In this document: piece by piece, positions 15,703 to 40,929 of the stretch
Layout of the letters: the number at the start of each line of letters is the position of its first letter
Numbering within the stretch: position 1 is the stretch's first letter
Assembly: GCA_963716175.1 (NCBI GenBank)
Contig: OY970296.1
Location: 452,031 to 516,030 of the forward strand
Length of the DNA stretch: 64,000 nucleotides
From: an uncultured Armatimonadetes bacterium
Lineage (GTDB): Bacteria; Armatimonadota; Hebobacteria; Hebobacterales; Hebobacteraceae
Direction of reading: 5' to 3'
Made by a program: the position numbers and the translations under genes
Notes under the pieces: generated by a model
The model's database searches: none
What the model was told of the DNA's origin: nothing
What the model saw: the letters and a program-made list of their open reading frames with translations, nothing else

Positions 15703-15783
15703 GCCAGTGCCGCCGCGGCGGCCGCTTGCCGCGGCCTAGCCGCTGATGGGGCGGGGCCAGCAGACCGGAGTGACGGGAGAGCG

Positions 15784-19775: not shown

Positions 19776-19787
19776 GGACGGAGACCG

Positions 19788-20423
19788 ATGGCGCGGCCCG
19801 CGGTGTTTCTCGATCGCGACGGCACCGTGCTGCGCGAGCGCGATTACCTGACATCCGCGCACGAGATGCGGCTGCTGCCAGGGGCAGGAGCTGCGATCCG
19901 CCGGCTGAATGAGGCCGGCTTTGCGGTGGTGGTGATCACGAACCAGTCGGGGATCGCGCGGGGTCTGCTGAGCGAGCGCGACCTCGACCACATGCACCAG
20001 GTCCTGCGCCGGCGACTCGCGCGCTCGGGTGCACAGCTCGACGGCATTTACTACTGCCCCCATCATCCCGAGGCGCCGCTCCGGCGGTATCGCCGCCGCT
20101 GCGGCTGCCGCAAACCGGCGCCCGGCCTGCTACGCCGGGCAGCGCGGGAGCTGAACCTCGATCTCCCACGCTCCTTCGCCATCGGCGACAGCCCACGCGA
20201 CCTGGAGGCAGGGCGGCGCGCCGGTTGCCGCGCGATCCTGGTGCGCACGGGCTATGGCATGCTCACCGAGACCACCGTGAATGCCAGGGCCTTCGACCAC
20301 GTGGCGGACGACCTGCCCGCGGCCGTCACTTGGGTACTGGCGCAGAGGCGGCGGGCATGCAGAGACATGCCCACCCTACAGGAGAGGCAAAGGCGCACAC
20401 AGGCCCCATGCAAGCGACCCTGA
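19788..20423 (+). CDS. gmhB: D-glycero-D-manno-heptose 1,7-bisphosphate phosphatase (HAD-IIIA, GmhB-like)
   Basis: FLDRDGTV, VVVITNQSGIARG and the CxH...C...C zinc-binding insert (YYCPHHPEAPLRRYRRRCGCRKP) match the GmhB/histidinol-phosphatase-like family. Confidence 0.8.
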   Translation: MARPAVFLDRDGTVLRERDYLTSAHEMRLLPGAGAAIRRLNEAGFAVVVITNQSGIARGLLSERDLDHMHQVLRRRLARSGAQLDGIYYCPHHPEAPLRRYRRRCGCRKPAPGLLRRAARELNLDLPRSFAIGDSPRDLEAGRRAGCRAILVRTGYGMLTETTVNARAFDHVADDLPAAVTWVLAQRRRACRDMPTLQERQRRTQAPCKRP

Positions 20424-21349
20424 TCGTGGTCAACTACAATGGGCGGGAGCTGCTGGTGAAATCCGTGCCCGCGGCCCTCGAGGCCGCGCGCCAGGCCGGC
20501 GGTCACCGCGTCGTGGTGGCCAATGACGGCAGCACGGATGACAGCCTCCACTATCTGCCTACCACTCACCCGGAGGTGGATGTGCTCGCCCTTCCCCACC
20601 GCGGCTTCGGCGCCACCTGCAACGCGGCCGTGGCGGCCGCGCAGACAGATGCCGTCCTGCTGCTGAACAGCGATGTCGTGGTCGCCCCGGATTTCCTGCC
20701 GCCCCTGCTTGAGGACCTGACGGGGCGTGATGTCTTCGCGGTCGGAGGCAAGTTCCTCAATCCGGATGGCTCGTTGACCGACGCCCTGGGCAATCGCACC
20801 TCGTGCCAGTGGCGCCGCGGCCTGCCCTACATCCACCACGAGACCGACCCCGCGCTGCTCGCAGCAACTTGTCCCCAGCTCTATGCCAATGGCGCCATGA
20901 TGGCCTTCTGGCGAGATAAGTGGCTCGCGCTCGGCGGCTTCGATCCCCTCTATCGGCCGTTCTACTGGGAGGATGCCGATCTGGGCTATCGCGCCTGGGG
21001 ACGTGGCTGGCGCGTGCTCTACGAACCGGCGAGCGTGGTCTTCCATGCCCAGGGCAGCACCATGAGGCGGACTCACCAGGTTCGCCACATCGAGCTGATG
21101 TCCGCCAAGAACGCCATCCTCTTCACCTGGAAGAATCTGCTCGATCCCGGCTTGCTGCGGCGCGCCCTGGCCGCTCAGGCCCGGTGGGCCGCGGATGACG
21201 TGCTGATCGGAGGCCTGCCGCCCCGCACCCGCGCTTTGCTGTGCGCCTCGCGCCAGCTCGCCGAGGCGGCCCGGGGCCGGGCCCGGGAAGCCCGCGAGCG
21301 CAGGCGCGCCGATTGGGAAATCCTGGCTGCCAGCGGAGCTGATCGGTGA
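20408..21349 (+). CDS. Family 2 glycosyltransferase
   Basis: MQATLIVVNYNGRELL, VVANDGSTDDS and the FYWEDADLGYRA region. Start at the internal ATG overlapping the gmhB 3' end by ~16 nt. Confidence 0.8.
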   Translation: MQATLIVVNYNGRELLVKSVPAALEAARQAGGHRVVVANDGSTDDSLHYLPTTHPEVDVLALPHRGFGATCNAAVAAAQTDAVLLLNSDVVVAPDFLPPLLEDLTGRDVFAVGGKFLNPDGSLTDALGNRTSCQWRRGLPYIHHETDPALLAATCPQLYANGAMMAFWRDKWLALGGFDPLYRPFYWEDADLGYRAWGRGWRVLYEPASVVFHAQGSTMRRTHQVRHIELMSAKNAILFTWKNLLDPGLLRRALAAQARWAADDVLIGGLPPRTRALLCASRQLAEAARGRAREARERRRADWEILAASGADR

Positions 21350-21855
21350 ACGCGCGGGGGCCCACGATACTGCTCTTGACGTTCGCGCGGCAGGGCGAGG
21401 AGGGTGCCATCCGGGGAGCGTTGGCATGGCTCAGCCAGCAAGCGCCCGGGGCCGAGTTCGTCGCGGTCGGGACTCCCGTGTCCGCTCCTGTTCTCAACCG
21501 CCTCGGCCTGACAGATGTGATCATCTTCGGGGACGGGGCCTCCACGCGGCAAGTGGTGGGAGAGGCAAGGGCGCGGCGGCCCAAGATCACCGCCATTGTC
21601 TACGGCGGCCCTGGCAGCAGCGCCCATCTCAAGCTGGAGCTGGTGGCCCTGGGCGCGGCCGCGCCGGTCACCTATCGGTTCGTGCCCGACACACCGCCGC
21701 GGCCAATCGGCAGATGGGCGCTGCTCGCGTCGGTCGCGACCAAAGCGCTGTCGGCGGCAGGCCGCCTGGTCGTGGGGTGCGTGATCTGCGGGATCGCGCT
21801 CTGCCGGCTGCGCCTGGCGCAGCTCCTGACGGGAGGGCAGCATGCGCGTGGCTAG
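21346..21855 (+). CDS. Stand-alone GT9-N-like module protein with a C-terminal TM helix (169 aa)
   Basis: PTILLLTFARQGEEGAIRGALAWLSQQAPGAEFVAV...RRPKITAIVYGGPGSS...LELVALGAAAPV, then GRLVVGCVICGIALC. GTGA overlap with the preceding stop. Confidence 0.6.
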   Translation: MNARGPTILLLTFARQGEEGAIRGALAWLSQQAPGAEFVAVGTPVSAPVLNRLGLTDVIIFGDGASTRQVVGEARARRPKITAIVYGGPGSSAHLKLELVALGAAAPVTYRFVPDTPPRPIGRWALLASVATKALSAAGRLVVGCVICGIALCRLRLAQLLTGGQHARG

Positions 21856-23005
21856 GTCTTGCCGCCACGGCGGCCCGAAGGGCCTAGCCGTCGGCCTTGA
21901 TGCCCGCACCCTGGCCTCCGAGGTGCACTCCGGGGTAGAAGAGTACGTGATCAACCTGGTGAGCGCGCTGTCGCGCCTGACCGAGGCCCCGGAGATCATC
22001 GCCTATGTTGACCGCCCGATCCCTGACCCCGAGACTGCGGAGGCCGCTTCCTCCGGACCGCTGCGAACCAGCATCGTGCGGGCCCGCCGCGGCTGGCTGC
22101 GAGCCGCTCTCCCCTGGCGGCTATGGCGAGACCGGGTGAACCTGGTGCACCTCCCCAGCACCATCCTGCCGCCGCTCCTTCCCTGTCCGGCCGTGGTGAC
22201 AGTCCACGATCTGGCCTGGGTGCGATACCCAGAGACCTATGAACCCAAAGACCTGGTGATGCAGCGACGGGCGGTAGCCGGGGCCGCGGCGCGGGCCGGT
22301 CACATCATCGCGGTCTCGGACGCCACCGCGCGCGATCTGCGCCAGCACTATCCGCGGTCCGGGGACAGAGTCTCGGTCATCCCTCTCGGCGTCTCGCCCC
22401 GATTCTCGCCAGACGGGCCGCGGCTGAGCACCGCAGCCTTCCCGGGCGCGGAGCGGCTCACCCGCGGCTATGTCCTCTACGCCGGCGGGCTGCAGCCCAG
22501 GAAGAATGTCCTGCGTCTCCTGGTGGCCTACGAGAAGGTGCTGGCCGAGACGTCGGCGCCGCCGCTAGTGCTGGCCGGGGCCGTCTCCCCCCACGCGCAC
22601 GAGCTGCGGCAGGCTTCCCAGAGGCTCGGGATCGAGCGCCACGTGGTCTTCCCGGGCTATGTGGCCCAGGACCTGCTGCCGGCCCTCTACCGCAGCGCGA
22701 CCGTGTTCGTCTATCCCTCGCTCTACGAGGGCTTTGGGCTCCCCGTGCTGGAGGCGATGGCCTGCGGCGTCCCGGTCGTCACCTCGAACGTGTCCGCCCT
22801 GCCCGAGGTGGCCGGGGAGGCGGCGCTGCTGGTGGACCCAGAGAGCGTGGAGCGGCTCTCGTGGGCGGTTTCGCTGCTGCTGGCGGACCAGGCGCTGCGC
22901 CAGACCCTGGGCCAGCGCGGCCCGGCGCGCGCCCGGCAGTTCACCTGGGAGCAGACCGCGCGCCAGACCGTGGGAGTCTACCAGCGGTTTGCGGCAGAAG
23001 AATAG
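21842..23005 (+). CDS. Family 4 (GT-B) glycosyltransferase; last gene of the operon
   Basis: C-terminal GT4 signature GYVLYAGGLQPRKNV ... SLYEGFGLPVLEAMACGVPVVTSN. Confidence 0.85.
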   Translation: MRVARSCRHGGPKGLAVGLDARTLASEVHSGVEEYVINLVSALSRLTEAPEIIAYVDRPIPDPETAEAASSGPLRTSIVRARRGWLRAALPWRLWRDRVNLVHLPSTILPPLLPCPAVVTVHDLAWVRYPETYEPKDLVMQRRAVAGAAARAGHIIAVSDATARDLRQHYPRSGDRVSVIPLGVSPRFSPDGPRLSTAAFPGAERLTRGYVLYAGGLQPRKNVLRLLVAYEKVLAETSAPPLVLAGAVSPHAHELRQASQRLGIERHVVFPGYVAQDLLPALYRSATVFVYPSLYEGFGLPVLEAMACGVPVVTSNVSALPEVAGEAALLVDPESVERLSWAVSLLLADQALRQTLGQRGPARARQFTWEQTARQTVGVYQRFAAEE

Positions 23006-23074
23006 GCGCGATCCGCGCTGGCTGTGAAACTTCCTGCCAGCCATTTCCGTATCCCACAGTGGCGGAGGCCGTGG

Positions 23075-23644
23075 ATGAGTGGGACACAGGTCCCAGAGGA
23101 TGAGGGACAGCTAATCCGGCTCTGCCGCGAGGGCGACCAAAGCGCCTTCGATAGCCTGGTTTCCCGCCATTACCGCGGGATCTACAACATGACCTACCGC
23201 ATGCTGGGAAATGCCGAAGATGCCTCGGACCTGACTCAGGAGACCTTCCTGAGGGCCTACACACGGTTGGAGACCTTCCAGCTGGGCCGCCCCTTCACCG
23301 CCTGGATCAGGCGGATCGCCACCAATCTCTGCATAGATCACCTGCGCCAGCGCGGTCAGCCCACCTTGTCCCTGGAGGAACGGCTGGAGTCGGGTGTGGA
23401 GGAGGCCGATAGCCGCCCGGAGGGCTCCCCGGTGGAGCGAATGGAGATGGCCGAGGATTCCCAGCGGGTGCTGGCAGCGGTGCAGCGGCTGCCGGCAAAG
23501 CAGCGGGCGGTGCTCGTCATGAGGCACATCGAAGGCATGACCCTGGAAGAGATCGCGGCCGCGCTGCGCTGGCCGCTGGGCACGGTGAAGGTGAACCTGT
23601 TCCGCGGCCGCCAGGCGGTCCGCGAGATGGTGGGTGAGCTATGA
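23075..23644 (+). CDS. ECF (sigma-70 family group IV) RNA polymerase sigma factor
   Basis: Region 2 (DLTQETFLRAYTRLETF) and region 4 (MTLEEIAAALRWPLGTVKVNLFRGR). Start placed at the internal Met; the track ORF begins at 23024. Confidence 0.85.
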   Translation: MSGTQVPEDEGQLIRLCREGDQSAFDSLVSRHYRGIYNMTYRMLGNAEDASDLTQETFLRAYTRLETFQLGRPFTAWIRRIATNLCIDHLRQRGQPTLSLEERLESGVEEADSRPEGSPVERMEMAEDSQRVLAAVQRLPAKQRAVLVMRHIEGMTLEEIAAALRWPLGTVKVNLFRGRQAVREMVGEL

Positions 23645-24258
23645 AGCGAAATGTGATGACTTGCTCCGCGGTGGCCGATCTGCTGGAAGCTTACTTCGAG
23701 CAGGTGCTTCCGGAGGGCAAGGCAGCGCTGGTGGCAGCCCATCTCCGGCAGTGCCGCGCCTGTTCCGGCAAGCTGGCCCAGATCGAGAAGATCACGGCGG
23801 CTCTGGCTGCGGTGCCGAGCAGCGAGCCGAGCGCAGACCTGGCGCGGTTGATCTCAGCTCGCGTGGCCGCGCTGCCGCCGGCCGCTCGACGTCGCTGGCT
23901 GGTGGTGGGATGGCGCCGCCTGGAGGTGCTGGCCGCAGCGTTCATGGTCTTCCTGGCGGCCTGGCGCTATGCCCTGCCGCTGCTCCTCTCCGAAGAGGCA
24001 GGCCGACTCCGGATCATCATCTGGGCCAAGCATGCCACCGCTCAGTTGGCGATCTGGGCGACGGCCCTGGCCGAGCCCTGCCACCGCCTCTGGCTGGCGC
24101 TACGAGGAACGCCGGAGGCGCTGAGGCCGGTTGTCACTGCGGTCGCGCCGACGGTCGCGCTCTACGCGGCGGCCGAGGTCGTCATCATCGCCGCCGTCAT
24201 CGTGATCGCTCATCGCACTCATCGCGCTCGTTTCGCTTCCGCAACCATCCTGCTGTGA
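23641..24258 (+). CDS. Anti-sigma factor (zf-HC2 type) with TM segments
   Basis: ATGA overlap with the sigma factor gene. HLRQCRACSG zinc-finger motif near the N-terminus, with hydrophobic helices after it. Confidence 0.7.
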   Translation: MKRNVMTCSAVADLLEAYFEQVLPEGKAALVAAHLRQCRACSGKLAQIEKITAALAAVPSSEPSADLARLISARVAALPPAARRRWLVVGWRRLEVLAAAFMVFLAAWRYALPLLLSEEAGRLRIIIWAKHATAQLAIWATALAEPCHRLWLALRGTPEALRPVVTAVAPTVALYAAAEVVIIAAVIVIAHRTHRARFASATILL

Positions 24259-24271
24259 AGGAGGAAGCTAC

Positions 24272-25811
24272 CATGAAAGGGTACTGCAGCGAGACTGTGG
24301 GGAGACGCGACTTGCGCTGGACAGCATGCCTGCTGATGGTGTTGGCGGCGAGCGCGCTGCTCTGGAGCCAGCTCGCGCTCGCGGCCGGCCCGCCCCTAGA
24401 CCTGTCCGGCACCTGGAAGTTCAAGGCCGACTGGGAAGAGAACGGCCAGGCCCTGGGGTGGCAGAAGCCCGAGTTCGATGATTCCACCTGGCGCGACCTG
24501 GCGGTGCCTGGAACCTGGGAAGGGCAGGGCGTCACTACCACCAACCCCCGCTGGCCGGGATCGGAGCCGTACAACGGCTACGCCTGGTACCGGCGCCACT
24601 TCTCCGTCCCGGCGGATTGGGGCCAACCGAACGAGAGCCTGCACATCGGGGCGATTGACGATATGGACTGGGTGTACATCAACGGCCAGCTGGTCGGGTC
24701 CACCAGCGGCGAGAGGGCCTTTGAACAGGAGCGGGAGTACGACCTCAAGCCCGGCCTGCTCAAGCCCGGCGCCGATAACGTGATCGCCATCCGCATCCTG
24801 GACACAGCAGGCAAGGGGGGCATCGTAGAGGGGCCGGTGGAGCTGGTCGGGTCCGCGCCGGAGTCAGCAGCAGAAGAGGAGCCAGGCGAAGCGGCTCCGC
24901 CCCCCGGCAAGTACCCCGAGAAGCGGGGCGACATGGTGCAGGTGGTGGGCAGTGTCACCGTGCCGCCTGGCAGCCAAGTGGACGGAGATGCGGTGGCGGT
25001 GGGCGGCTCGGTTGATGTCAAAGGATATGTCACCGGAGACGTGGTCGCGGTGGGCGGCTCAGTCACGATCCGGCCGGGGGCGAGGGTGGATGGAGACGCC
25101 GTGGCCGTGGGCGGCACCGTCAAGACCGAAGGGGATGGCATAGTCAAGGGTCAGGTCACCCAGGTCACCCTCTTCCCCTGGGCCATCCCGGGTATCTTCG
25201 GGCTCGCCTTCCTCACTGGCTCGTCTTCTCTCGTCTTCGTGCTGGTGAAGAGGCTGATCCTGTGGGGGCTGCTGGCGGTGCTGCTCGCGCTGATCTGCCC
25301 TAAGCGCCTGCAAGTGATGGCGCGGGCCCTGCCGCTTTACCCGGGATGGGTGGCCGGGCACGGCGTGGTGGGCTGGGTATTGACCCCGGCGGTGGTGCTG
25401 CTGGTGGCGCTGGTGGCGGCCGCCGTCTGCGTGGTGCTTGCCATCACCATCATTGGCATCGTGCTGATCCCGGCCGTGGCGCTGGTGCTGGTGGCGGTGG
25501 TGCTTGGCCTATTCCTCCTGCTCTGCCTCGGGCTGGGCGGGGTCTGGGTGAGCATAGGGCAAGCGCTCATCGCCCGCATGGGCCGGCCGGAGGCGAGCGT
25601 GCTGCCGGCGGCGCTGCTAGGTGTGGTATTGACCGCGGTCGCTTCGGCGGTCCCCGTGGCGGGGACGCTGGTGCTGATCACGCTTGTGATCTTCGCCTAC
25701 GGGCTGGGGCTGATGACCGGAGGGGGAACGAGACCGGAATGGACTCATCGGCGCCTGGGAATCCGCCGCGCTCCCGAGGCTGCTCCGGCCTCGCAGACTC
25801 CCACCGCCTAG
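24272..25811 (+). CDS. Polytopic membrane protein with a signal peptide, a GH2-N-like (galactose-binding jelly-roll) domain and bactofilin-like beta-helical repeats
   Basis: The real start is an ATG about 640 nt inside the 725-aa track ORF (23634..25811), just after the anti-sigma stop. LSGTWKFKADWEENG...NGYAWYRRHFSVP...WVYINGQLVGS...DLKPG..NVIAIRILD resembles the Glyco_hydro_2 N-terminal sugar-binding domain. Repeats (VDGDAVAVGGSV)x3 are bactofilin/DUF342-like. At least 6 TM helices follow. Confidence 0.6.
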
Positions 25812-25896: not shown

Positions 25897-26523
25897 TCAC
25901 TGGCCCAGGCCGAGAGTTCGCCTCCGCCCTCCCCGCTGCAGCGTTACGCTCTTGGCGCTGATCCTCACCACTCGGTAGCCGCCCGAGATGGTGTCACCCT
26001 CGCGGACCAGGTACCGGCTCTCGCCTTGCCTTAGCACTGCCACCTTCCGCTCATCGCCCACCACGCCTGAGAGCCTGAGCACATTCGGAGGAGGACCGCC
26101 AGAGGTGCCGGCGGCCAGCTGAGGCCCGCCAAATGGCAGCAACGGCGGCAGGGGCCCTCGTGCGTCCACACTTGCCCGCGCCACTACCCGCTTGACGCCG
26201 GCGCGCTGGCGAGTGGGAACGACCTTCACAGGCAGGCGGCCCGTGACCTGTGGTTGGGGAGCTCCTGGCGAAGTAGAAGTATTGGCACTGAGCGCAGACC
26301 CCTCGCCCGGAGGACCGGACTCCCGTAGGCGGCGGTTAGCCGCTGGCTTCGGGTTGACCGGGGACAAGGCCGGCTGGGGTGTCTGCGTGATCCGCACTCG
26401 ATCAGCTGGAACTGCGAGCCTGAGAGGCGCGCCGGAGTGGCTCGTGACGGCGCCGATGACGATTACCACCAGGGCCGCCGCGAAGACAAGCAAGCTGGAT
26501 AGGTTCCGCGTAGTGGACTTCAT
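25897..26523 (-). CDS. Hypothetical membrane-anchored protein (N-terminal TM helix, Pro-rich linker, C-terminal beta-rich domain)
   Basis: MKSTTRNLSSLLVFAAALVVIVIGAV anchor; the C-terminal GVVGDERKVAVLRQGESRYLVREGDTISGGYRVVRISAKSVTLQRGG resembles PilP/GspC-like small beta domains. No family assignment possible. Confidence 0.4.
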   Translation of the reverse strand: MKSTTRNLSSLLVFAAALVVIVIGAVTSHSGAPLRLAVPADRVRITQTPQPALSPVNPKPAANRRLRESGPPGEGSALSANTSTSPGAPQPQVTGRLPVKVVPTRQRAGVKRVVARASVDARGPLPPLLPFGGPQLAAGTSGGPPPNVLRLSGVVGDERKVAVLRQGESRYLVREGDTISGGYRVVRISAKSVTLQRGGRRRTLGLGQ

Positions 26524-26671
26524 GATCTCCCTCCCGGCGACCACGGCCTCCGTGCCGCTTCATACCATAACCAGGGCGTGATCCCACACAGAAGAGGCGG
26601 CCCCAGGCAGCGCGAATCTGTGCCCAGGGCGCCTGGCTTGCCGGCTCCCGGCTGGTTATGGAATATAGCCC

Positions 26672-27650
26672 TTGGCCCCGGAGCGGTGGGGCCTGCGCGC
26701 CGCAGACTCATGGGATTCTGCGGACGCGTGCCATTGGGAGGTGCGGGTCGGCATGAGGTCTCATGCCGGAGAGAGCCACACCCGCTCCCAGCGGCTAGTG
26801 GCGCGGGAGAACCAGGTGGTCAGGCGAGCAGCTCTCGAAAACACCCGGTGCGACGCTGAGGGATACCGTCGCCTCTGGCGGCGCGACCCGCACTCACTTC
26901 GCTTCGCCGAGCTGGCCGACTTGGCCCGCCGCCAGGGCCACCTCCCGCAGGCGGCAGCACTCTCCGCGCGCGGGCTCCTGCTGCACCCGGGCTATGCCAC
27001 CGGGCGCGTGGTAATGGGCGATATCTTCTGGGATCAGAACCTGGAGCACAGGGCCGAGCAGGAATGGCAGGAAGCGCTGCGGATTGACCCTCGGCATCCT
27101 CGGGCTCATCTCCGCCTGGGTGAACTCTACCTGCGCCGCGGCGATCTTCCCCGCGCGGGCCGCGGTGGAGGCGGCGCTCATCTGGAACCCGGAATCGGCC
27201 GAAGCGCGAGCCCTGCTGGCAAGAGTGAGTGGGCGCCCATCCGCTCCTGCTGAGGCAGGTGCTGCGCGCGCTGCCCCGCCCGCGATGTCGCCGGCGAGGT
27301 GCGAAGAAGTGCTAGCGGCCGTCTCCGCCTGCATCTCGGTGTCGCGCGCGGCTGTGGTCAACTCCGACGGCTCGACAGTTGCCGGGACCGACGCCCACCC
27401 GGAGGCAGGGTCGGCGGCGGTGGCGCAACTGATCCGCGAAGCCCGGAGGATAACGCCCCAGCTCGGTGGGGGGCGGCTGCGAGGCGCGCTGCTGCAAGGC
27501 ACCGGGGGCAGCCTGCGCTGTCTCGTGCTGGAGCAGCTGCTGCTGATTGCTGGACTTGAGCCTGGGGTTTCGCCGAGCGCGGCCGATGCTGAGATCGAAC
27601 AGGCCATTGCCGGCCTGGGTGGCTGTCAGGGGGAGCAGGCGTATGCCTGA
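26672..27650 (+). CDS. TPR-repeat plus Roadblock/LC7 domain protein, split across two frames by an apparent +1 frameshift near 27155-27160
   Basis: Frame 2 reads TPR helices ...HLRLGELYLRRGDLPRA; frame 0 continues the same TPR motif (AVEAALIWNPESAEARALLARV), then a Roadblock/LC7 domain (VVNSDGSTVAGTDAHPEAGSAAVAQLIREARRI...LRCLVLEQLLL). The shift lies in the run ccccgcgcgggccgcgg. Confidence 0.5.
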
Positions 27651-28047
27651 GGGGTCGCGATTCGAGCTGCCGCTCAATGTGCTGACCGCGACGCCAGGTG
27701 TGTGCGGAGGCGTGGTCGCCACTGATGACGGCCTGCCGCTGGCTGTGCGGCTCCAGGCCGGACACGACCAAGAGGCCCTATCGGCGGCCGCGGCGGTGCT
27801 CGGTCGTCTCGCGGCTATGGTCATTGCCACCCTCGATCGCGGGGAGCTCGAGCTCGGTGTGCTGGAGGGGGAGAAGCTGCGACTTATGGTCAGGCCGCTC
27901 TCGCTCGGCTTCCTCCTCGTGCTCACTGAGCCGGAGGCGAACCTCGGCCTGATCGCGCGCGAGATTGCGCGGGCGGCCGAGGCCCTGGAACAGGCGGCCG
28001 CAGCGGTTGGTGCGGATTGGATGGCGGCGCAGGGAGGTGCAGCATGA
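27643..28047 (+). CDS. Roadblock/LC7 (MglB-like) domain protein
   Basis: LNVLTATPGVCGGVVATDDGLPLAVRLQAGHDQEALSAAAAVLGRLAAMV...RLMVRPLSLGFLLVLTEP matches the Roadblock/LC7 pattern. ATG overlaps the upstream stop. Confidence 0.7.
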   Translation: MPEGSRFELPLNVLTATPGVCGGVVATDDGLPLAVRLQAGHDQEALSAAAAVLGRLAAMVIATLDRGELELGVLEGEKLRLMVRPLSLGFLLVLTEPEANLGLIAREIARAAEALEQAAAAVGADWMAAQGGAA

Positions 28048-28484
28048 CAGAGATCCTTGACCTGGTGATCCGAGAGCAGGACCTGTTGCAGGTGAACCGC
28101 GCGCTCGCGGCGATGCTGCGCGACTCTCGCGCCCGGTGTGTAATCCTGATCAACCGCAATGACGGCAGCGTGCTGGCGGCCCAGGGATTCCTCGATTCCC
28201 TGGACACCACCTCACTGGCGGCCCTGGCCGCAGGGGCGTTTGCCTCCGCGCGGGAGATTGCCCGGCTGATCGGAGAGCCCGAGTTCAGCGTGCTTTTCCA
28301 CCAGGGCCAGCGCGAGCATGTCCACGTCAACCTCGCGGGAGCGCACGGGCTGCTGATGACCTTGTTCAACGACACCAGCACGGTAGGGCTGGTGCGCCTG
28401 TGCGCGCGCCAGGCCTGCACCGTGATCGAACGCGCCCTGCATGGACGGGCCCCCGGAGAAAGCGGCGACCCCGCCAGACCGTAG
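28044..28484 (+). CDS. Roadblock/LC7 (MglB-like) domain protein
   Basis: MTEILDLV...ARCVILINRNDGSVLAAQGF...SLAALAAGAFASAREIARLIGE...HVHVNLAGAHGLLMTLFND. ATGA overlap with the previous gene. Confidence 0.7.
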   Translation: MTEILDLVIREQDLLQVNRALAAMLRDSRARCVILINRNDGSVLAAQGFLDSLDTTSLAALAAGAFASAREIARLIGEPEFSVLFHQGQREHVHVNLAGAHGLLMTLFNDTSTVGLVRLCARQACTVIERALHGRAPGESGDPARP

Positions 28485-28514
28485 CGGGGTCGCCAACCGC
28501 GCCTGACAGCAGGG

Positions 28515-28739
28515 CTAATCAGCCCAGCTGATCGCCTCCGCCGGGCAGCCATCAATCGCTTCCTGGATCGCGCTCTCGCCGGCCCCGGTGGGATTCTTCA
28601 CCACGGCGATGTCATCGTCCCCCATCTCGAACACTTCCGGGCAAGTCTCGACACAAGCCCCGCAGCCAGTGCAAAGATCGGCATCAACCACAGGTACTCT
28701 CATTGCAGCCTCCCCGGCCATGATCTCGGTGTGCTCCAT
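28515..28739 (-). CDS. Ferredoxin (single [4Fe-4S]/[3Fe-4S] cluster type)
   Basis: DADLCTGCGACVETCPEVFEMGDDDIAVVKNP...IDGCPAEAISW gives a CxxCxxC...CP ligand pattern. Start could be 28739, 28721 or 28703. Confidence 0.8.
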   Translation of the reverse strand: MEHTEIMAGEAAMRVPVVDADLCTGCGACVETCPEVFEMGDDDIAVVKNPTGAGESAIQEAIDGCPAEAISWAD

Positions 28740-29219
28740 ACCCCGGCGCCCGGTAGTTCTGTGGGCGCCAGTTGACTTCCTCCCAGACCACTCAGCGCGC
28801 GGGCGCGGCCTGCGGTAGCAACGGCTGGGCGGCAGCCGAAGCAACGGGCACCGCCAGGCCAACGCTACGACCGCCCCGGTTGGTGTGCCCTGTCAAGGAG
28901 GCGAGGAATTCGTAACTGCTTCGAACCACTCACACCCGGGACGGTCGCACTAACATCATACCCTACTGACCATTACGATGTGCGCGCAATTCTGGACACA
29001 TTCACACTGCTCTGTGATAGAAATACGACACGATGGTAATTGCTGGTACCAGACGGCAAAGGACTGTCACAAAGACGCCCACAGGCGAACGGAAAACGAC
29101 CAACCAGGAAGGCGGCGAGGTGGAAAGCAGTGCCAACGCCAGCCAGAGCGGCTGGCAGCGCTTCTGCGCCAGTCCTGGCAGGCCCCGCCCGGAGACCTAG
29201 ACCGGACTCCTCAGGGCCC

Positions 29220-29294
29220 TGGTGGCACCGGCTGGGCTCGAACCAGCGACATAGCGGTTATGAACCGCTCGCTCTACCACTGAGCTACGGTGCC
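29220..29294 (-). tRNA. tRNA-Met, anticodon CAT (elongator type, or tRNA-Ile2 if lysidinylated)
   Basis: Reverse complement: GGCACCG-TAGCTCAGTGGTAGAGCG-AGCGGTTCATAACCGCT-ATGTC-GCTGGTTCGAGCCCAGC-CGGTGCC-ACCA. 7-bp acceptor stem, GTTCGAG T-loop, encoded CCA. Position 1-72 is base-paired, so it is not an initiator tRNA. Confidence 0.8.
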
Positions 29295-29359: not shown

Positions 29360-31630
29360 TCACGGCTTCATGGTGGCCAGTCGCGCCAGGCTGGCGCGCT
29401 GCTGCCAGCGCTCGGCCGCCGCGAGGTCGGGCCAGGGCAGCTCGATGCGGTAGTCGTTCTCGTCGAGCGCAAGCTGGAAGCTGTGCCGGAAGGCGGCCAC
29501 TTTGAGCGGGAAATGCAGGGCTCGCTTCCTCCGGTCAATGGGCCGCATCACCATCTCCTGGTCGTCGTACGCGGAGAACCGCGTGGCCTCCCGCATGCGG
29601 GCATAGGCGGGCGAAAGGCGAGTCACCTCCCGCCACTGCTCCACCGCGTTCTCAGTTTCGCCCTTGAAGTAGTAGACCAGGCCCAGGTTGCTGCGCGCGA
29701 TGGGGTTGCTGGGGCGCCAGTCTACGACCTGTACCAGATGACGTACCGACTCCGCCAGCATCTTTCCCTTGGCATAGGCCAGGCCCAGGTCGTTGTGTCC
29801 CTCCGGGGAGCGGGGGGAGAAGATCAGCACCCGCTTGAAGCACTCCAGGGCCTCGTTCAGCCGGTCATCCTTGTAATAGGCGAGGCCAAGGTTGGCGTGG
29901 CCGTCCGGGTTGGGAGGCTCGAGCTTCACCAGGGCTCGGAAGTGCTCTATCGCCTCCGGCAATTCCCCTAGGTCCACCGCGGCATGGCCCACGAGGTCGT
30001 GGGCGGCCGCGAGCTGAGGGTCAAGGCTGGCCGCGTAACGGGCCTGCTCGGCCGCGGCCGCCAGGTCGCCTTCGAGGTAGTAGGTCAGCCCGAGATTGCA
30101 GCGGGCAATGGCGCTGCGCGGCATGGCGTCGGCCACAATCCGGAACTGCTCGGCCGCCTCCACTAGCCGGTCCTGAGAGAGCCGGAGGATGCCGATGGCA
30201 TTGTAGACCTCAGGGAAGCCGGAGTAGAGCCTGATCAGCTCATCGAGCTGCTCCTGGGCCTCGTCGAACATGTCCAGCATATGGTAGGCGGTGGCGCAGT
30301 TATACCGGGCCAGGGCGTGCCTGGGGTTCATCCTCACCGCAGCCCGGAAGTGGTCGAGCGCTTGCCTCAGCCGCTCGTCGAGGTAGACGGCCACGCCCAG
30401 GTTCAGCACTACGTCCGCGCTCTTGGACTCCAGCTCGTAGGCCCTTTCCAGCTCCCGCACCGCCTGGTCTACAATGCCCTCGCGCACCAGCAAGGTGCCA
30501 GCATTGTACCTGACCTGGAAATCGCCAGGGGCGACCCGGACCGCCTGGCGAATGGCATCAAGCGCGCGCCCGGTCTGGCCCAAGCGGTACCAACAGCTCC
30601 CCTTCTGAACCAGGGCCCAGCCGTGGTCGGGGGCGACCCGACCCACCGCGCTGAAGTCCTCGATCGCGGCCTGGCACCGACCCTGGAGCATGGCGCACAC
30701 ACCCCGGTTGTAGCGAGCGGCGACGTGGGCCGGCTGGCGCTGAAGCGCGCCGGTGAAGCATCGCTCCGCTACCGTGAGATCGCCTCGCGCCTGATGAATG
30801 ATGCCCAGGTTGCACAGCGCGTCGGGGTGCCGGCGCCGGATCGCGAGCGCCTCCTCCAGCTCTGCCACCGCCTGGTCTGGCATTCCTTGCCGCGCCAGCA
30901 CCAGGGCCAGGGCATTGCGGGCGGCGAGATGACTCGGGTCGAGTTCCAGCAGCTCCCGGAAGCACTGGGCGGCCTCCGAGAACTGCGCCAATTGCCAGTG
31001 ACAGAGCCCGAGGTTCCAGAGCGGCGTCTGTGAGCTGCTCATGCGGGGGCGGGCCCGTTCCAGCTCCTCGATGGCGCGAGTATGACGGCCGGCCGCGGCT
31101 TGGGTAGCGGCGAAGTTGTGGCGCACCAGAGCCGGCACCTCGGCCGCTCCCATCAGCCGCAGCAGCACCTGCTCGGCACGGTCTCTTCCGCTCTCGACCC
31201 AGAGCACGGCGGCGAGCCGCATCTGGGCCTCAGTATCATTGGGCTCAGCTTCGAGGGCGCGGTCGCAAGCGCGCCTGACGCGGGACAGGTTGCGCTTTGC
31301 CAGATAGGTGAAGAGGCCGAGGAGGGCACCGGCCCATCTGCGCCGCAGCACCCGCAGACCCGGGCCCGGTAGGCTTCCCACTGCCGAGCCCGCCGCCGCT
31401 CCAATCACGGCCCCGGCCAGGAGCACGCCGACAGGCAGAGGCGCGTCCCCCGCCCGTGTACCACCACCAGCCCCAGGCCGGCACCGAGCACGAAGCACAG
31501 ACCCGCCCAGATGAGCCACGCGGCGCGCGGCTCGGCATGCCTGCGCACACCCCGCGTCTCTGGTGCATGTTCTAGGGGCGTGCCGCAGACGGTGCAGCTG
31601 GCTTGCTGTGCTGTGTTGGCCGCCCCGCAC
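29360..31630 (-). CDS. Large TPR-repeat protein (at least 18 TPR units) with an N-terminal hydrophobic segment
   Basis: Long succession of W-LG-Y...A-F..AL...P motifs. The N-terminal boundary is uncertain: a GTG near 31426 or a fusion with the upstream zinc-ribbon ORF. Confidence 0.8.
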   Translation of the reverse strand: MRGGQHSTASQLHRLRHAPRTCTRDAGCAQACRAARRVAHLGGSVLRARCRPGAGGGTRAGDAPLPVGVLLAGAVIGAAAGSAVGSLPGPGLRVLRRRWAGALLGLFTYLAKRNLSRVRRACDRALEAEPNDTEAQMRLAAVLWVESGRDRAEQVLLRLMGAAEVPALVRHNFAATQAAAGRHTRAIEELERARPRMSSSQTPLWNLGLCHWQLAQFSEAAQCFRELLELDPSHLAARNALALVLARQGMPDQAVAELEEALAIRRRHPDALCNLGIIHQARGDLTVAERCFTGALQRQPAHVAARYNRGVCAMLQGRCQAAIEDFSAVGRVAPDHGWALVQKGSCWYRLGQTGRALDAIRQAVRVAPGDFQVRYNAGTLLVREGIVDQAVRELERAYELESKSADVVLNLGVAVYLDERLRQALDHFRAAVRMNPRHALARYNCATAYHMLDMFDEAQEQLDELIRLYSGFPEVYNAIGILRLSQDRLVEAAEQFRIVADAMPRSAIARCNLGLTYYLEGDLAAAAEQARYAASLDPQLAAAHDLVGHAAVDLGELPEAIEHFRALVKLEPPNPDGHANLGLAYYKDDRLNEALECFKRVLIFSPRSPEGHNDLGLAYAKGKMLAESVRHLVQVVDWRPSNPIARSNLGLVYYFKGETENAVEQWREVTRLSPAYARMREATRFSAYDDQEMVMRPIDRRKRALHFPLKVAAFRHSFQLALDENDYRIELPWPDLAAAERWQQRASLARLATMKP

Positions 31631-33716: not shown

Positions 33717-36269
33717 TTGCCCGCCTCCGGCGGGGACGGCGCTGTCGAATCTCGCGACAGGCGGGAAACCGCGCCCCAACGAAGAACCAAGCGCCAGATC
33801 AGGGAGGGCCTAGAGGTGGCGATACAAGACTTCGAGCTCAGTGCCGACCAACTCCGCGTGGTCTGCGATGCCAGCAGCCTGGGGTTCGAGACCACGGCGG
33901 AGCTGCCCACGCTGGAGGACAGCGTGGGCCAGGACCGCGCCATGGCCGCGATAGACTTCGGGCTGGAAGTGAAGACGCCGGGCTACAACATCTTCGCGGT
34001 GGGGCCGACTGGGACGGGGCGCATGTTCGCGGTGCTATCCCGGGCCCGGGAGGCAGCGGCGAAGCAGCCCACCCCGGATGACTGGTGCTATGTCAACAAC
34101 TTCGACGATGCCCGCCGGCCGGTGGCGCTGCGCCTGCCGGCGGGCCGCGCGGTCGAGTTCTCCCGGGAAGTGGAAGAGCTAATCCAGATGTGCAAGCAGG
34201 AGATTCCGCGCGCCTTCGAAAGCGAGGCCTACGAGCAGCGCAAGGAAGCGGCGATCGGGGACGTGCAGGCCGAGCGCAACCGCTTGCTGCGCCAACTGGA
34301 CGAGGAGGCGCGGGCCGAGGGGCTGGTGATCCAGGCCACGCCCATGGGGATTATCTCGCTGCCGCTGGCCGACGGCAAGGCCATGTCCCGGGAGCAGTAC
34401 ATGCAACTCCCTCCCGAGGAGCGAGACGCGATAGACAAGAAGATGGAGCGGCTCCGCGACCGGATCGCGGAAGGGCTGGGGCAGGCGCGGCAGCTTGAGA
34501 AAGAGGCGCGAAAGCGGGTGGAGGAGCTGGATGCTCAGATCGCGATGATGACTATCGGCCATCGCTTCGAGGAAGTGAAGGCCAAGTACCAGGACCATGC
34601 CAGTGTGGTGACGCATCTCGACCGCCTGGCTCAGGATGTGCTGCAGCACCTGGACGAGTTCCGCCCCGGGGAATCACCCCAGGGCGAGGCGCCGCCCACG
34701 GAGGCGGTTCCGCCCCGCTATCGGGTCAACGTCCTGGTGACCAACGAGAAGGGCGCCGGGGCGCCAGTGATGCAGGAGCAGAGCCCCACCTACTACAACC
34801 TGGTCGGAAAGCTGGAGTACCGGCCGGTGGCCGGGGGCGCGATCACGGATTTCACCTTGATCAAGCCAGGCGCATTCCACCTCGCCAACGGCGGCTACCT
34901 GATCCTCCAGGCACTGGAGGTGCTGCTCAACCCCTTCGCCTGGGAGGCGCTCAAGCGGACCATGCGCAGCCGCAAGGCCACCATCGAGAACATCGGAGAG
35001 CAGTACAGTCCGGTCCCGGCCGCCACTCTGCTCCCGGAGCCGATCCCCCTTGACACCAAGGTGATCCTGGTGGGCTCGCCCCTGCTCTATTTCCTGCTCT
35101 ACCAGTGGGATGAGGATTTCGGCAAGCTGTTCAAGGTGAAGGCCGACTTCGATGTGGACATGACGGCCAGCACCCAGGCCAACCGCAGCTATGCCGCCTT
35201 CATGGCCACCCACTGCCGCAACCACGGCCTCCGCGAGCTGACCAAGGAAGCCGTGGCCAGGGTGATCGAATACGGGATGCGGCTGGCGGCCGATCAGGAG
35301 CGGCTCTCCACTCGCTTCGCCGCCGTCGCCGACCTGCTCACCGAGGCCAACTTCTGGGCCCAGCGGGCGGGAGCCGAGTTGATCGGGGCCGAGCACGTGG
35401 ACCAGGCCTTGGAGCACAAGGAGTACCGCTCCCGCCGGCTCGCGGACCGCCTCTTCGAGTTCATCGCACGGGGCGATCTCATCGTGGACGTGACCGGCGC
35501 GGTGCCCGGGCAGGTCAACGGTCTGGCCGTGCTGGATCTGGGGGATTACGCCTTCGGACGACCCTCGCGCATCACCGCCCGGGTCACGCCCGGCCGCTCC
35601 GGTGTGGTCAACATCGAGCGCGAGGCGCGCCTGGGCGGGGATATCCAGCACAAGGCGGTGATGATCCTCACCGGCTATCTCGCTGGCAGCTATGCCTCGG
35701 AGGCCCCCCTCTCTGTTACCGCCAGCCTCTCCTTCGAGCAATCGTACGAGCTGGTGGAGGGGGATTCCGCCTCCTGCGCCGAGCTCTACGCCATCCTCTC
35801 CATGCTCGCCGACGCGCCCATTCGCCAGGGCATCGCGGTCACCGGCTCCATGGACCAGAATGGGAACGTGCAGCCCATCGGCGGGGCCAATCAGAAGATC
35901 GAGGGCTTCTTCGCCACCTGCAAGCTGAAGGGATTAGCCGGGGATCAGGGGGTGATGCTCCCGCGCCAGAACATCAAGAACCTGACGCTGAAGCCAGAGG
36001 TGGTGGAGGCCGTGAGGGAGGGTAAGTTCCACATCTGGGCGGTCTCCACTGTGGACGAGGGTGTCGAGGTTCTCACTGGCGTGAGAGCCGGCTCGCCCAG
36101 AGAGGCGGATACCATCCACGGGCGGGTGGCCGCCCGGCTGCGCAAGTTCGCGGATGCCCTGAGCGGTGTGAAAGAAGAGAGAATCAAGCAGATCATTGAG
36201 CTGCCTCCCAGCGCCGCCACCCCCCGTCCCCCCACCCCTCCGCCACCACCCATACCGCGACACGGTTGA
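33717..36269 (+). CDS. Lon-like ATP-dependent protease (AAA+ module plus S16 Lon_C peptidase domain), Pro-rich C-terminal tail
   Basis: GQDRAMAAIDFGL and NIFAVGPTGTGR (Walker A) AAA+ region. Lon_C proteolytic domain with catalytic Ser context TGSMDQNGNVQPIGGANQKIEGFF. Tail PRPPTPPPPPIPRHG. Confidence 0.8.
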   Translation: MPASGGDGAVESRDRRETAPQRRTKRQIREGLEVAIQDFELSADQLRVVCDASSLGFETTAELPTLEDSVGQDRAMAAIDFGLEVKTPGYNIFAVGPTGTGRMFAVLSRAREAAAKQPTPDDWCYVNNFDDARRPVALRLPAGRAVEFSREVEELIQMCKQEIPRAFESEAYEQRKEAAIGDVQAERNRLLRQLDEEARAEGLVIQATPMGIISLPLADGKAMSREQYMQLPPEERDAIDKKMERLRDRIAEGLGQARQLEKEARKRVEELDAQIAMMTIGHRFEEVKAKYQDHASVVTHLDRLAQDVLQHLDEFRPGESPQGEAPPTEAVPPRYRVNVLVTNEKGAGAPVMQEQSPTYYNLVGKLEYRPVAGGAITDFTLIKPGAFHLANGGYLILQALEVLLNPFAWEALKRTMRSRKATIENIGEQYSPVPAATLLPEPIPLDTKVILVGSPLLYFLLYQWDEDFGKLFKVKADFDVDMTASTQANRSYAAFMATHCRNHGLRELTKEAVARVIEYGMRLAADQERLSTRFAAVADLLTEANFWAQRAGAELIGAEHVDQALEHKEYRSRRLADRLFEFIARGDLIVDVTGAVPGQVNGLAVLDLGDYAFGRPSRITARVTPGRSGVVNIEREARLGGDIQHKAVMILTGYLAGSYASEAPLSVTASLSFEQSYELVEGDSASCAELYAILSMLADAPIRQGIAVTGSMDQNGNVQPIGGANQKIEGFFATCKLKGLAGDQGVMLPRQNIKNLTLKPEVVEAVREGKFHIWAVSTVDEGVEVLTGVRAGSPREADTIHGRVAARLRKFADALSGVKEERIKQIIELPPSAATPRPPTPPPPPIPRHG

Positions 36270-37302: not shown

Positions 37303-37375
37303 CTGGACCGCCCGCCCTACAGAACCGCGGTCCTGCAAACGGCCCAGCGGGCATGGAATGCCCGCCCTACAGCGG
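37303..37375. repeat. REP-like element, GGGCAT-n4-ATGCCCGCCCTACA family; overlaps the radical-SAM stop codon
   Basis: CGCCCGCCCTACAG ... GGGCATggaaATGCCCGCCCTACAG; same arm as the copies at 47516 and 53355. Confidence 0.6.
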
Positions 37376-38392
37376 CGGCCCCTCATACGCTAGATAGCAG
37401 GCGCGGCAGAAGGCCGGGTTGCGGCCGGTGCGAATCTGCTCCCGCAGGCGCTGCATCGCCGAGCCGTTCCAGGCGGTGGCGAAGCTGGCGCCCGACTCCA
37501 GCGCATTGCCCAGCAGCAAGCCCTCTGGGCCCGCGGCATAAGGACACGGGGCCACGTCTCCCCGGACCGTGATCGCAGTCCTGCCCCAGGGCCAGCGGCA
37601 GGGCCTGCCCTCCGCCGGCTTCCGCGGCGGGGGAGGCGCTTCGGGACAGCGGAACTCGAGATTCGCCGCCAGGGCGAGGCGGCGGGCCTCGGGGAGCACG
37701 CGCTGTAGATCCTGGCCCAGCACGCGGCGCTCCGCCACCACGCGCTCCAGGGACTCAGACCCGAAGTTGGTGAGCTTGGCGGTGCACAGCAGGCCGTCCA
37801 CTCCCCACTCCGCGCAGCGCTGAACCAGCGCCGGAATCTGTGGGGCCGATTCCCGCTGGATCACATGCCAGACCCGGATCACCGGGGACCGCCGCCGGCC
37901 TCGCTCCCGCACCAGGGCCGCGATCCCCTGGGAGATGCGCTCCAGGTCGGACCCAGGCCGCAGCCGGGCATGAGTCTCTGGATCGGCGGCATCAACCGAG
38001 ATGTTGAGATGGTTGAGGCCACAGGTGAGGAGCTGGCGACGTGTCTCCTCGCCCAGCACGCTGCCATTGGTGGTGGTGAGCACCCGCACTCGGCGGCGCC
38101 GCGCCTCCTGCACCAGGCCGAAGAAATCCGGGTTCAGCAAGGGCTCGCCCAGCCCCACCAGCTTGATCCGATAGACGGTGGGAAGCTGGTCGAGCAGTCG
38201 GGAGAAATCGGCGAGTGAGAGGTGGGCGCGCGGGAAAGCGCCATCGGTGCTGGGGCAATGGGGACAGCGGTAGTTGCAGAAGCTGGTGGGCTCGATGTCC
38301 GCCCGCGCCGGGAGCGCGCGGCTCGCCGCCGGGCGGTGGCGGTAGGCTTGCCGCAGGCGCAGGGAGTTCAGCAAGGCGGAAGCTGGCCGCAT
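37367..38392 (-). CDS. Radical SAM enzyme with a C-terminal SPASM/twitch-like Cys cluster
   Basis: CNYRCPHC (CxxxCxxC) radical SAM motif. C-terminal CRWPWGRTAITVRGDVAPCPY...CRACY auxiliary cluster cysteines. Start at the internal Met (MRPASALL) of the 427-aa ORF, which itself opens on TTG. Confidence 0.8.
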   Translation of the reverse strand: MRPASALLNSLRLRQAYRHRPAASRALPARADIEPTSFCNYRCPHCPSTDGAFPRAHLSLADFSRLLDQLPTVYRIKLVGLGEPLLNPDFFGLVQEARRRRVRVLTTTNGSVLGEETRRQLLTCGLNHLNISVDAADPETHARLRPGSDLERISQGIAALVRERGRRRSPVIRVWHVIQRESAPQIPALVQRCAEWGVDGLLCTAKLTNFGSESLERVVAERRVLGQDLQRVLPEARRLALAANLEFRCPEAPPPPRKPAEGRPCRWPWGRTAITVRGDVAPCPYAAGPEGLLLGNALESGASFATAWNGSAMQRLREQIRTGRNPAFCRACYLAYEGPPL

Positions 38393-38403
38393 GCCGCGTC
38401 CCC

Positions 38404-39139
38404 TCAGAACAGCAGCGAGAAGGTGATGGGGCGAACCCGCCAGGATCCCTCTTCCTTCACCAGCCAGAGGTTCCCGCTGACGTGCTTGCGGAGAAGCCCG
38501 GCGAAGCGCAGGGTGGCATCGAAATCCACCCGGATCCCGTTCAGGGTAGTGGGCCGCCCGGCCACCTCCAGGCGGGTCATCTTCACCCAGTGGGGTGGGC
38601 GGCGAGGCACATTCCACCAGTGGAAGGTGAGTGCCTTCATCCCCCCCCAATCAGACCGCAGCCAGGCGTGCAAGAAGTCGAACGCCGCCTGCCGCACCGC
38701 GGGCTCCTGGCGCCGGTCGGCCTTCGTGGGGCTGCGGTCGGGGACCTGCGCCTCCGGAGGCAGCTCGTTGAACCAGTAGAGCTGGCGCACCTGCCAGCTC
38801 TTGCTCGCGCCCTCCTCCACGTAGCGCAGCACCATGATGCCGCGGGTCGGGAGATTGGGGTCGGTCATGGGTCCCGCGGAACTCAATCGCCCCGATCCTC
38901 CCATCCGCCCTCTGTTTGTCGAGCTGAGGCATGTGCGCGAACGGGCAGGGGCCATAGAGATTGGCCTTCTGATTGGGAAGCATGCGCTTGATCGCGTCTC
39001 GGTCGTTGCGGCTGAAGGCGAAGAGGAAATCCCGCGCCACCTGCGCCGCCTCCGGGGGCATACCCTGGGCCCTGCTCGGACTCCCCCAGGCCATCGCCAG
39101 TCCAACAGTCAGCATCACGGCCGCGATTTTGGTCTTCAT
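38404..39139 (-). CDS. Secreted hypothetical protein (signal peptide plus NTF2/SnoaL-like region), apparently split over two frames
   Basis: Frame X: MKTKIAAVMLTVGLAMAWGSPSRAQG signal plus AAQVARDFLFAFSRNDRDAIKRML. Frame Y from about 38869: MVLRYVEEGASKSWQVRQLYWFNE...LWLVKEEGSWRVRPITFSLLF. Both look protein-like and the join is near 38870-38930. Confidence 0.35.
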
Positions 39140-40896: not shown

Positions 40897-40900
40897 CGCG

Positions 40901-40929
40901 GTGGGGCGCGGGCCCAGGCCGCGCCCCCA
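40901..40929. terminator. GC hairpin GGGGCGCGG-gcccagg-CCGCGCCCC between convergent genes
   Basis: 9-bp perfect stem read from the sequence; no strong U-tract. Confidence 0.35.

Follow-up and report, generated by a model that had tools for sequence, protein, structure and literature searches.

The MglA/MglB pair is the model for a Ras-like switch that sets bacterial cell polarity, and what is known of it comes almost entirely from Myxococcus and Thermus. A 64,000-nucleotide stretch of DNA from an uncultured Armatimonadetes bacterium (contig OY970296.1, positions 452,031 to 516,030; herein the window; G+C ~67%) raises the question of what the regulators of such a switch do when no gene for the switch itself stands beside them. 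At 26672–28484 on the plus strand of the window lie three tandem genes for Roadblock proteins (herein genes 1, 2, and 3), in which a preliminary description made from the sequence saw either the partners of a GTPase encoded elsewhere or a platform with a different client. The best-supported interpretation is that the region is a three-gene operon derived from the MglA/MglB front–rear polarity module associated with type IV pili, and one high-GC Armatimonadota lineage has cleanly lost mglA from between genes 2 and 3. Judging from the sequence of gene 3, the probable client of the trio is still a GTPase of the MglA type whose gene lies in another part of the genome.

Gene 3 (28044..28484, plus strand; 146 amino acids, aa) scores 42.7 bits against the Pfam Robl_LC7 model (PF03259; gathering score 23 bits). 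Its residues 6–129 (124 residues) match Myxococcus xanthus MglB in the PDB (6izw, 6h5b, 6hjm) at E 2e-20 in a phmmer search, Thermus thermophilus MglB follows at E 1e-13, and no other family scores comparably. The sole NCBIfam match is the MglB model (a Thermus-type equivalog) at 60 bits, against a clade-specific cut-off of 200, and the protein is 49–52% identical (blastp) to the MglA-adjacent MglBs of two related loci, L009 and L010. Its homologues form ~200 clusters, of which ~95 are 57–82% identical to gene 3, and those named by source come from Armatimonadota metagenome-assembled genomes (MAGs). By homology, gene 3 is an orthologue of the motility and polarity GTPase-activating protein (GAP) MglB, of the group 1 (motility) type.

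Loci that retain mglA give the gene order from which the operon departs. L010, from an Armatimonadota MAG, runs from a gene for a Roadblock protein fused to tetratricopeptide repeats (TPR-Roadblock) through two membrane proteins with Roadblock-like C-termini, a Roadblock protein, an MglA-like GTPase, MglB, PATAN, PilM, PilN, two unassigned genes, and the secretin PilQ to PilB. L009 reads PATAN, TPR-Roadblock, a membrane protein with a Roadblock-like C-terminus, Roadblock, MglA, MglB, PilB, PilT, PilC; and L048 reads pilins, PilM, two unassigned genes, secretin PilQ, a response regulator, Roadblock, a Ras-like GTPase, MglB, and PATAN. The order that we regard as ancestral (TPR-Roadblock ... Robl2–MglA–MglB–PATAN beside pilMNOPQ/pilBTC, where Robl2 denotes the mglA-proximal Roadblock gene) holds in all MglA-bearing Armatimonadota loci recovered, in Zixibacteria and in most of 80 metagenome loci, and Robl2–MglA...MglB is found in Fibrobacterota. 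A scan of genome contigs with the L010 MglA that recognized exact 8-mers only (e.g., FNTKFQLY) gave 35 loci, which helped to fix it.

When compared with L009 and L010 by blastp, gene 1 leads to the TPR-Roadblock gene, gene 2 to the mglA-proximal Roadblock gene, and gene 3 to mglB. Because of these links and the conserved gene order, the operon in the window can be recognized as the ancestral module with mglA removed exactly between genes 2 and 3, and an ATGA overlap now joins these two genes where ancestral-type loci have mglA. In the mglA-less lineage the cassette has likewise lost its adjacency to the genes for PATAN, for the pilus, and for the membrane-bound Roadblock proteins. The cassette without mglA is found in 12 distinct lineages; 12 of its loci have flanks of 1.5 kb or more on both sides, and not one of these holds MglA anywhere. 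Four loci share the synteny of the window (L004, L006, L012, and L008, the last in the closed 3.15-Mb genome CP070816.1): a glycosyltransferase operon, an extracytoplasmic function (ECF) sigma factor with its anti-sigma factor, a GH2_N-like membrane protein, a PilP-like gene, the cassette, a ferredoxin, and a large TPR protein. Each encodes the full trio of TPR-Roadblock, Roadblock, and MglB, and a GTPase gene is lacking for ±10 kb around it. A more distant relative, L011, has other neighbors, yet carries the same cassette and the same ferredoxin. All three open reading frames (ORFs) are intact in L002, L003, L004, L006, L008, L011, L012, L049–L052, and L056.

The ancestral-type loci also contain extra membrane proteins between the TPR-Roadblock and the mglA-proximal Roadblock genes (L010, 2870–6166 and 6209–6943; L009, 7369–8334), one of which has 1098 aa and a middle part that is long, acidic, and repeat-like. 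At their C-termini these proteins resemble additional Roadblock domains, and a module would then number up to five Roadblock proteins.

Gene 2 (27643..28047, plus strand) encodes a small, generic Roadblock protein of 134 aa that scores 39.6 bits against Robl_LC7. Its family profile matches 7f8m in the PDB at E 2e-15, along with dynein LC7 and, more weakly, MglB; CvnB5 (3leq) is matched at E 1e-8 and LAMTOR2 at E 1e-4. By blastp, gene 2 is 30–31% identical to the Roadblock protein Robl122 of L010, and it reaches Robl112 of L009 via the gene 2 proteins of L008 and L011. These blastp matches and the conserved gene order identify gene 2 as the counterpart of Robl2, the Roadblock gene directly upstream of mglA in ancestral-type loci. 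A D-G signature considered as an MglC-clade marker for gene 2 was dropped, as the same motif also occurs in these MglBs.

Gene 1 is where the window departs from its closest relatives. The plus strand of 26672–28484 holds four long ORFs rather than three (26672..27253, 27084..27650, 27547..28047, and 28017..28484), and gene 1 is spread over the first two, with its TPR domain in frame 2 (26672..27253) and its Roadblock domain in frame 0 (27084..27650). The likely start is GTG at 26816, preceded by GGGAG at 26805–26809 and near the position at which most aligned homologues begin; other candidates are ATG at 26755 and TTG at 26672, the latter giving the longest ORF. From the likely start, the 5′ part (26816..27253) ends prematurely at TGA 27251–27253. 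In the 3′ part (27159..27650, with its TGA stop at 27648–27650), the last of the TPR region gives way to a linker and then to the Roadblock domain. Near-identical metagenome contigs, L001 and L002 (JGI) and L003 (ENA), were found by exact look-up of the gene 3 protein; in alignment all three read CCCCGCGCGCGGG where the window reads CCCCGCGCGGG, such that the window is 2 bp (CG) short in the GCGCG tract at 27153..27157 and passes there from frame 2 to frame 0. In L002 and L003, gene 1 is a single frame, called as 299 aa and no longer than 326 aa. The TPR fusion claimed in the preliminary description is thus intact in these contigs, and the split by a 2-bp deletion in the window had been missed. 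The deletion could be either an assembly error or a strain-level inactivation (a slipped-strand variant). A programmed frameshift is unlikely and was rejected, as the relatives encode the protein in one frame. In the window as it stands, expression of the 3′ part would have to begin at an internal ATG (27285; 121 aa) without an obvious ribosome-binding site.

The domains of gene 1 are nevertheless recognizable in both of its parts. Its N-terminal half exceeds the cut-offs of four Pfam TPR hidden Markov models (TPR_16, 34.5 bits; TPR_19, 30.5 bits; TPR_2, 27.8 bits; TPR_17, 26.0 bits). The AlphaFold2 model of the protein (mean predicted local distance difference test, pLDDT, 80.5) has helical repeats at residues 35–159 (pLDDT > 90), with paired helices at 51–159, followed by a low-confidence linker. 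It contains about 3.5 TPR units, instead of the two that the preliminary description had counted. Residues 181–290 are modeled as α-β-β-α-β-β-β-α, the Roadblock topology. A Foldseek search of the PDB with the model gave TPR proteins as its top matches, the TPR half dominating the top 50. In the window the Roadblock part reaches 17.7 bits against Robl_LC7 (E 0.003), under the gathering score. A precomputed PF03259 match exists for 13 of 18 close members of the gene 1 family, hhalign aligns the gene 1 Roadblock profile with the gene 2 family at 97.6% probability (E 3e-12), and the family profile matches the solved Roadblock proteins 7f8f and 7f8m in the PDB at E 2e-6; because of these matches and the topology of the model, we regard the C-terminal half of gene 1 as a real Roadblock domain, and its similarity to the gene 2 family marks it as a paralogue of gene 2. 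The gene 1 family is small (18 clusters, 42–55% identity). The earlier count of three Roadblock genes accordingly stands for genes 2 and 3 by the Pfam gathering score, and for gene 1 by profile methods and model topology.

The three genes are tightly coupled. The ATG of gene 2 (27643) overlaps the stop of gene 1 by 8 nt (ATGCCTGA at 27643–27650), and that of gene 3 (28044) overlaps the stop of gene 2 (ATGA at 28044–28047); both overlaps had been read in this way before, and each start is preceded by a Shine–Dalgarno-like motif (GGGGAG at 27630–27635 for gene 2 and GGGAGG at 28032–28037 for gene 3). Spacing is similarly tight in L003, L006, and L011. A scan of 26400–28900 for promoter and terminator consensus sequences found nothing.

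Is there a partner for these proteins close by? The window was searched with Pfam on ~50 ORFs covering most of the 64 kb, with a six-frame scan for Walker A motifs, and with tblastn using MglA. No Ras-, Arf-, or MglA-like GTPase, DUF742 protein, or histidine kinase was found within 5 kb of the operon, as had been reported, or anywhere else in the window. The only GTPase in the window is RsgA (51527–52483, minus strand), a ribosome small-subunit biogenesis and assembly factor unrelated to MglA. No mglA lies within four genes of gene 3, the distance used to define genomic coupling (PMC4316618), or within 28–35 kb on either side of it. Searches beyond the loci were uninformative on absence. A protein-database search with the L009 MglA domain was saturated: at least 8000 matches passed E < 1e-10, and Zixibacteria-like proteins of 70–81% identity filled the top 120; CP070816.1 (3,149,615 bp) has no match among those top 120, which says nothing on whether its genome encodes MglA. 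The same holds for the 8-mer scan with the L010 MglA, whose 35 loci do not include the cassette genomes.

Two parts of MglB bear on whether the partnership persists, and they point in different directions. In the crystal structure, MglB contacts MglA mainly through helix α2, on its two-helix side (PMC3199381). Across the corresponding region of gene 3 (residues 52–88), consensus residues have a mean frequency of 0.90 among 104 sequences of the cassette type and of 0.86 among 62 MglA-linked ones. The same residue is present at 80% or more in both groups in 23 of 37 columns, against 1/23, 5/19, 5/24, and 6/19 in the other segments. The C-terminus has a different history. MglA-linked MglBs carry a tail of 42–69 aa past the Roadblock core that ends in an acidic D-x-[ILVF]-F motif; cassette-type MglBs end 13–32 aa past the core and lack the motif, as does gene 3 with its tail of 27 aa. 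Among 86 loci with a long-tailed MglB, 78 have the motif, and all 40 long-tailed loci with at least 1.5 kb of flank on both sides have MglA within 1.5 kb. The 17 short-tailed loci, representing 12 distinct lineages, have no motif, and in the 12 with such flanks MglA is found nowhere in the locus. An acidic C-terminal helix is not universal among MglBs. The long tail corresponds to the C-terminal helix of M. xanthus MglB, which occupies an allosteric pocket on MglA and thereby stimulates nucleotide exchange; if this helix is missing, MglB binds MglA-GTP only, and binding MglA is the only known role of the helix (PMC6785124).

We hypothesize that the MglA-type partner still exists and is encoded elsewhere, because the α2 face is conserved. 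On this reading, the operon would supply the regulators and the scaffold of an MglA/MglB switch of the sort by which type IV pili are positioned. Translational coupling would have the three proteins made in a fixed ratio, and the Roadblock domains of genes 1 and 2 may pair as a heterodimer or as mixed dimers. Such a pair could present the TPR domain as a docking arm and bind the MglB dimer, a role comparable to that of Myxococcus MglC, which links MglB to RomR. The MglB dimer would then act in trans on a distant MglA-type GTPase as a GAP-only regulator, since gene 3 has no C-terminal helix and is therefore expected to have no exchange-promoting function. We propose this architecture by analogy with Myxococcus MglB–MglC–RomR and with Roadblock heterodimers in general, and both the GAP activity of gene 3 and the existence of a distant mglA are inferred. 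Precedents are available: 328 of 749 MglB-family genes are not adjacent to mglA, yet MglA is encoded in 200 of the 238 genomes that contain an MglB-family gene (PMC4316618), and a second Roadblock gene, of the MglC clade, is known to be coupled to group 1 mglA (PMC4719450).

Several observations weigh against a distant MglA partner or against details of this scheme. Helix α2 also mediates the self-association of MglB in crystals (PMC3199381), so its conservation is not exclusive proof of MglA binding. Within ±10 kb, mglA was not found in L004, L006, L008, L011, L012, L049, or L051, nor was it found for any cassette genome in the loci and window searched, the wider searches being uninformative. 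The loss of an adjacent mglA coincides exactly with the loss of the acidic C-terminal helix (0 of 17 short-tailed versus 78 of 86 long-tailed MglBs), which would be expected if the partnership with MglA had changed or ended. As for the proposed bridge, no chain named MglC stands among 60 PDB matches (E ≤ 1) to the gene 2 family profile, in a copy of the PDB in which the presence of MglC is unconfirmed, and the likeness of gene 2 to MglC would be one of gene position only. Gene 1, finally, is frameshifted in the window, though near-identical contigs from three other assemblies lack the frameshift. Of the two explanations offered in the preliminary description, the conserved MglA-binding face favors a GTPase encoded elsewhere, and the lost C-terminal helix sustains a different client.

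The latter can be phrased more sharply, namely that MglA was lost from the whole genome and that TPR-Roadblock, Roadblock, and helix-less MglB form a Roadblock platform without it, either scaffolding pilus or envelope proteins via the TPR arm or regulating some other, non-MglA GTPase. This is possible, though on balance unlikely. It accounts for the missing mglA, both in the cassette loci (0 of 12) and in the 64 kb of the window, for the loss in the same branch of a helix whose sole known function is to dock on MglA, and for the disappearance of the pilus, PATAN, and membrane-Roadblock genes from the neighborhood; moreover, MglA-family genes were missing from 38 of the 238 genomes in which MglB-family genes occur (PMC4316618), and MglC is a Roadblock paralogue that functions without binding MglA (PMC4719450). 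However, absence from a locus is uninformative on the other ~3 Mb of a genome, the published MglB-family count includes many Roadblock proteins that are not MglB orthologues, and an α2 face that is as conserved as in MglA-linked orthologues, with the same residues, despite 57–82% overall identity is hard to explain without a partner. The stronger proposal that an Armatimonadota clade discarded MglA and keeps a three-Roadblock complex (TPR-Roadblock, MglC-like Roadblock, and helix-less MglB) under purifying selection is doubtful on the same grounds. If it were true, the clade would be a natural case in which the GAP and scaffold half of a Ras-like polarity switch outlived its GTPase, and the complex would be a nucleotide-independent polar scaffold or the regulator of a different, unrecognized GTPase. 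Decay to a functionless relic of a lost motility system is highly improbable. The frameshift in gene 1, the absence of mglA, pilus genes, and PATAN from the neighborhood, and the poor conservation (30–50% identity) of the gene 1 Roadblock domain and the gene 2 family would all fit a relic, but only the window sequence carries the frameshift, 11 other lineages have all three ORFs intact, the start/stop coupling and Shine–Dalgarno sites are kept, and MglB is 57–82% identical across ~95 clusters. The idea that the cassette is a fragment of an actinobacterial-type conservon (Cvn/Mfp-like), with which it had at first been compared, is refuted by gene content: the match of the gene 2 profile to CvnB5 (3leq, E 1e-8) is a weak one to one of many Roadblock proteins, whereas no CvnA-like kinase, DUF742 protein, or CvnD GTPase occurs in the window or the related loci, the organism belongs to the Armatimonadota, gene 3 is a group 1 (motility) MglB orthologue, and the related loci are embedded in type IV pilus clusters. 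The trio is instead the remnant of a conserved type IV pilus-associated module.

The trio differs from known systems in several respects. Like the group 1 MglA/MglB of M. xanthus and T. thermophilus, gene 3 aligns along its core, keeps the α2 MglA-contact helix, and has relatives adjoining MglA and type IV pilus genes; unlike in those systems, mglA is not linked, MglB lacks the exchange-promoting helix, and the operon holds two extra Roadblock genes. A further parallel is offered by the group 1 MglA systems with two MglB-family genes, including MglC (MglB_orphan1), as the ancestral-type loci likewise flank mglA with MglB and a divergent Roadblock gene, the counterpart of gene 2 (PMC4316618; PMC4719450), and Myxococcus MglC binds MglB and RomR, not MglA (PMC4719450; McLoon et al. 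2016). The window keeps such a pair without mglA and adds a third, TPR-fused Roadblock protein. Since mglA is missing from the four genes on either side, the published definition makes gene 3 an orphan mglB (PMC4316618), but it differs from other orphans in that it is truly orthologous to coupled MglB and arose by an excision of mglA that can be traced precisely, with helix loss and two retained partner Roadblock genes. Several co-encoded Roadblock proteins could pair here as small-GTPase scaffolding heterodimers, as in the eukaryotic platforms for Rag GTPases, Ragulator/LAMTOR and MP1–p14; the likeness is at the level of the fold only. Actinobacterial conservons (CvnA–D, Mfp) also include a Roadblock protein that partners a small GTPase, but the kinase, DUF742, and GTPase genes are absent here, the phylum is another, and gene 3 falls in the motility-type MglB clade.

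Orphan mglB genes, 1:2 coupling of MglA to MglB, MglC, and the association of the module with pilus genes are already in the literature. We found no published description of a TPR-Roadblock fusion as a member of the module, of a coupled cassette from which mglA has been excised throughout a clade, or of the coincident loss of the MglB helix, and a literature search on the genome accessions found no papers. To our knowledge, the orphan MglBs characterized so far include none from the coupled (true MglB) clade. By 2014 no orphan MglB had been studied (PMC4316618), and MglC has been studied since. The TPR-Roadblock fusion is not mentioned by Wuichet and Søgaard-Andersen (2014; PMC4316618), where the term “TPR” does not occur, or by McLoon et al. 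(2016). In several little-studied phyla the polarity switch is accompanied, beside the pilus machinery, by additional Roadblock proteins that form a fixed set and number a TPR-Roadblock fusion among them. One lineage has uncoupled the regulators from the GTPase gene while trimming MglB to its GAP core, a natural “ΔCt, unlinked” variant that could reveal which functions of MglB need the C-terminal helix and co-expression with MglA; should MglA prove absent, it could show which role is left to Roadblock platforms once the GTPase is gone.

Both neighbors of the operon were recognized in the preliminary description, and closer comparison bears out their identities. Divergent from the cassette lies a gene for a membrane protein with a weak GspC/PilP-like C-terminal domain (25897..26544, minus strand), which matches Pfam T2SSC at E 1.5e-4 and the NCBIfam GspC and PilP models, all under their cut-offs. 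It has a proline-rich middle and a C-terminus of ~50 aa that is conserved in L004, L006, L008, and L012 (five lineages with the window). We considered this gene as a leftover of pilMNOPQ, and the idea is unsupported, with no match in the pilus clusters of L010, L014, or L048. Convergent with gene 3 is a gene for a small, single-cluster 4Fe-4S ferredoxin (28515..28739, minus strand; Fer4_13, E 1e-15). A ferredoxin gene lies downstream of mglB in every cassette locus, with copies 71–81% identical in L004, L006, L008, L011, and L012, whereas MglA-linked loci have no Fer4_13 ferredoxin at that position.

Beyond the ferredoxin, the window holds a tRNA-Met (CAT) gene (29220–29294, minus strand) and then the gene for a 756-aa protein that consists almost wholly of TPR repeats (29360–31630, minus strand) and is conserved beside the cassette in L004, L006, L008, and L012 at 61–64% identity. 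On the other side, a ~17-kb run of glycosyltransferase genes (GT2, GT4, pyruvyl transferase, epimerase, and HAD phosphatase) occupies part of 5851–25811 on the plus strand, followed by an ECF sigma factor (23024–23644), a zf-HC2 anti-sigma factor (23641–24258), and a polytopic membrane protein with a GH2_N-like sugar-binding domain. Synteny with L004, L006, L008, and L012 covers the 3′ portion only, comprising the last glycosyltransferases, the sigma/anti-sigma pair, and the GH2_N protein. Farther downstream, 33717–36269 (plus strand) encodes a LonC-type Lon-like protease (LonC_helical, AAA_32, LonB lid, and Lon_C domains), in which the six-frame scan found no [AG]xxxxGK[ST] Walker A motif, fitting a Lon variant with a degenerate ATPase. 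It is followed by genes for a radical SAM/SPASM enzyme (37367–38650, minus strand), an HlyD-like protein (39157–40896), a DUF1854 protein (40934–41659, minus strand), and a fused ABC exporter (41584–44025, minus strand), and 37367–44025 may be a peptide-maturation and export cluster.

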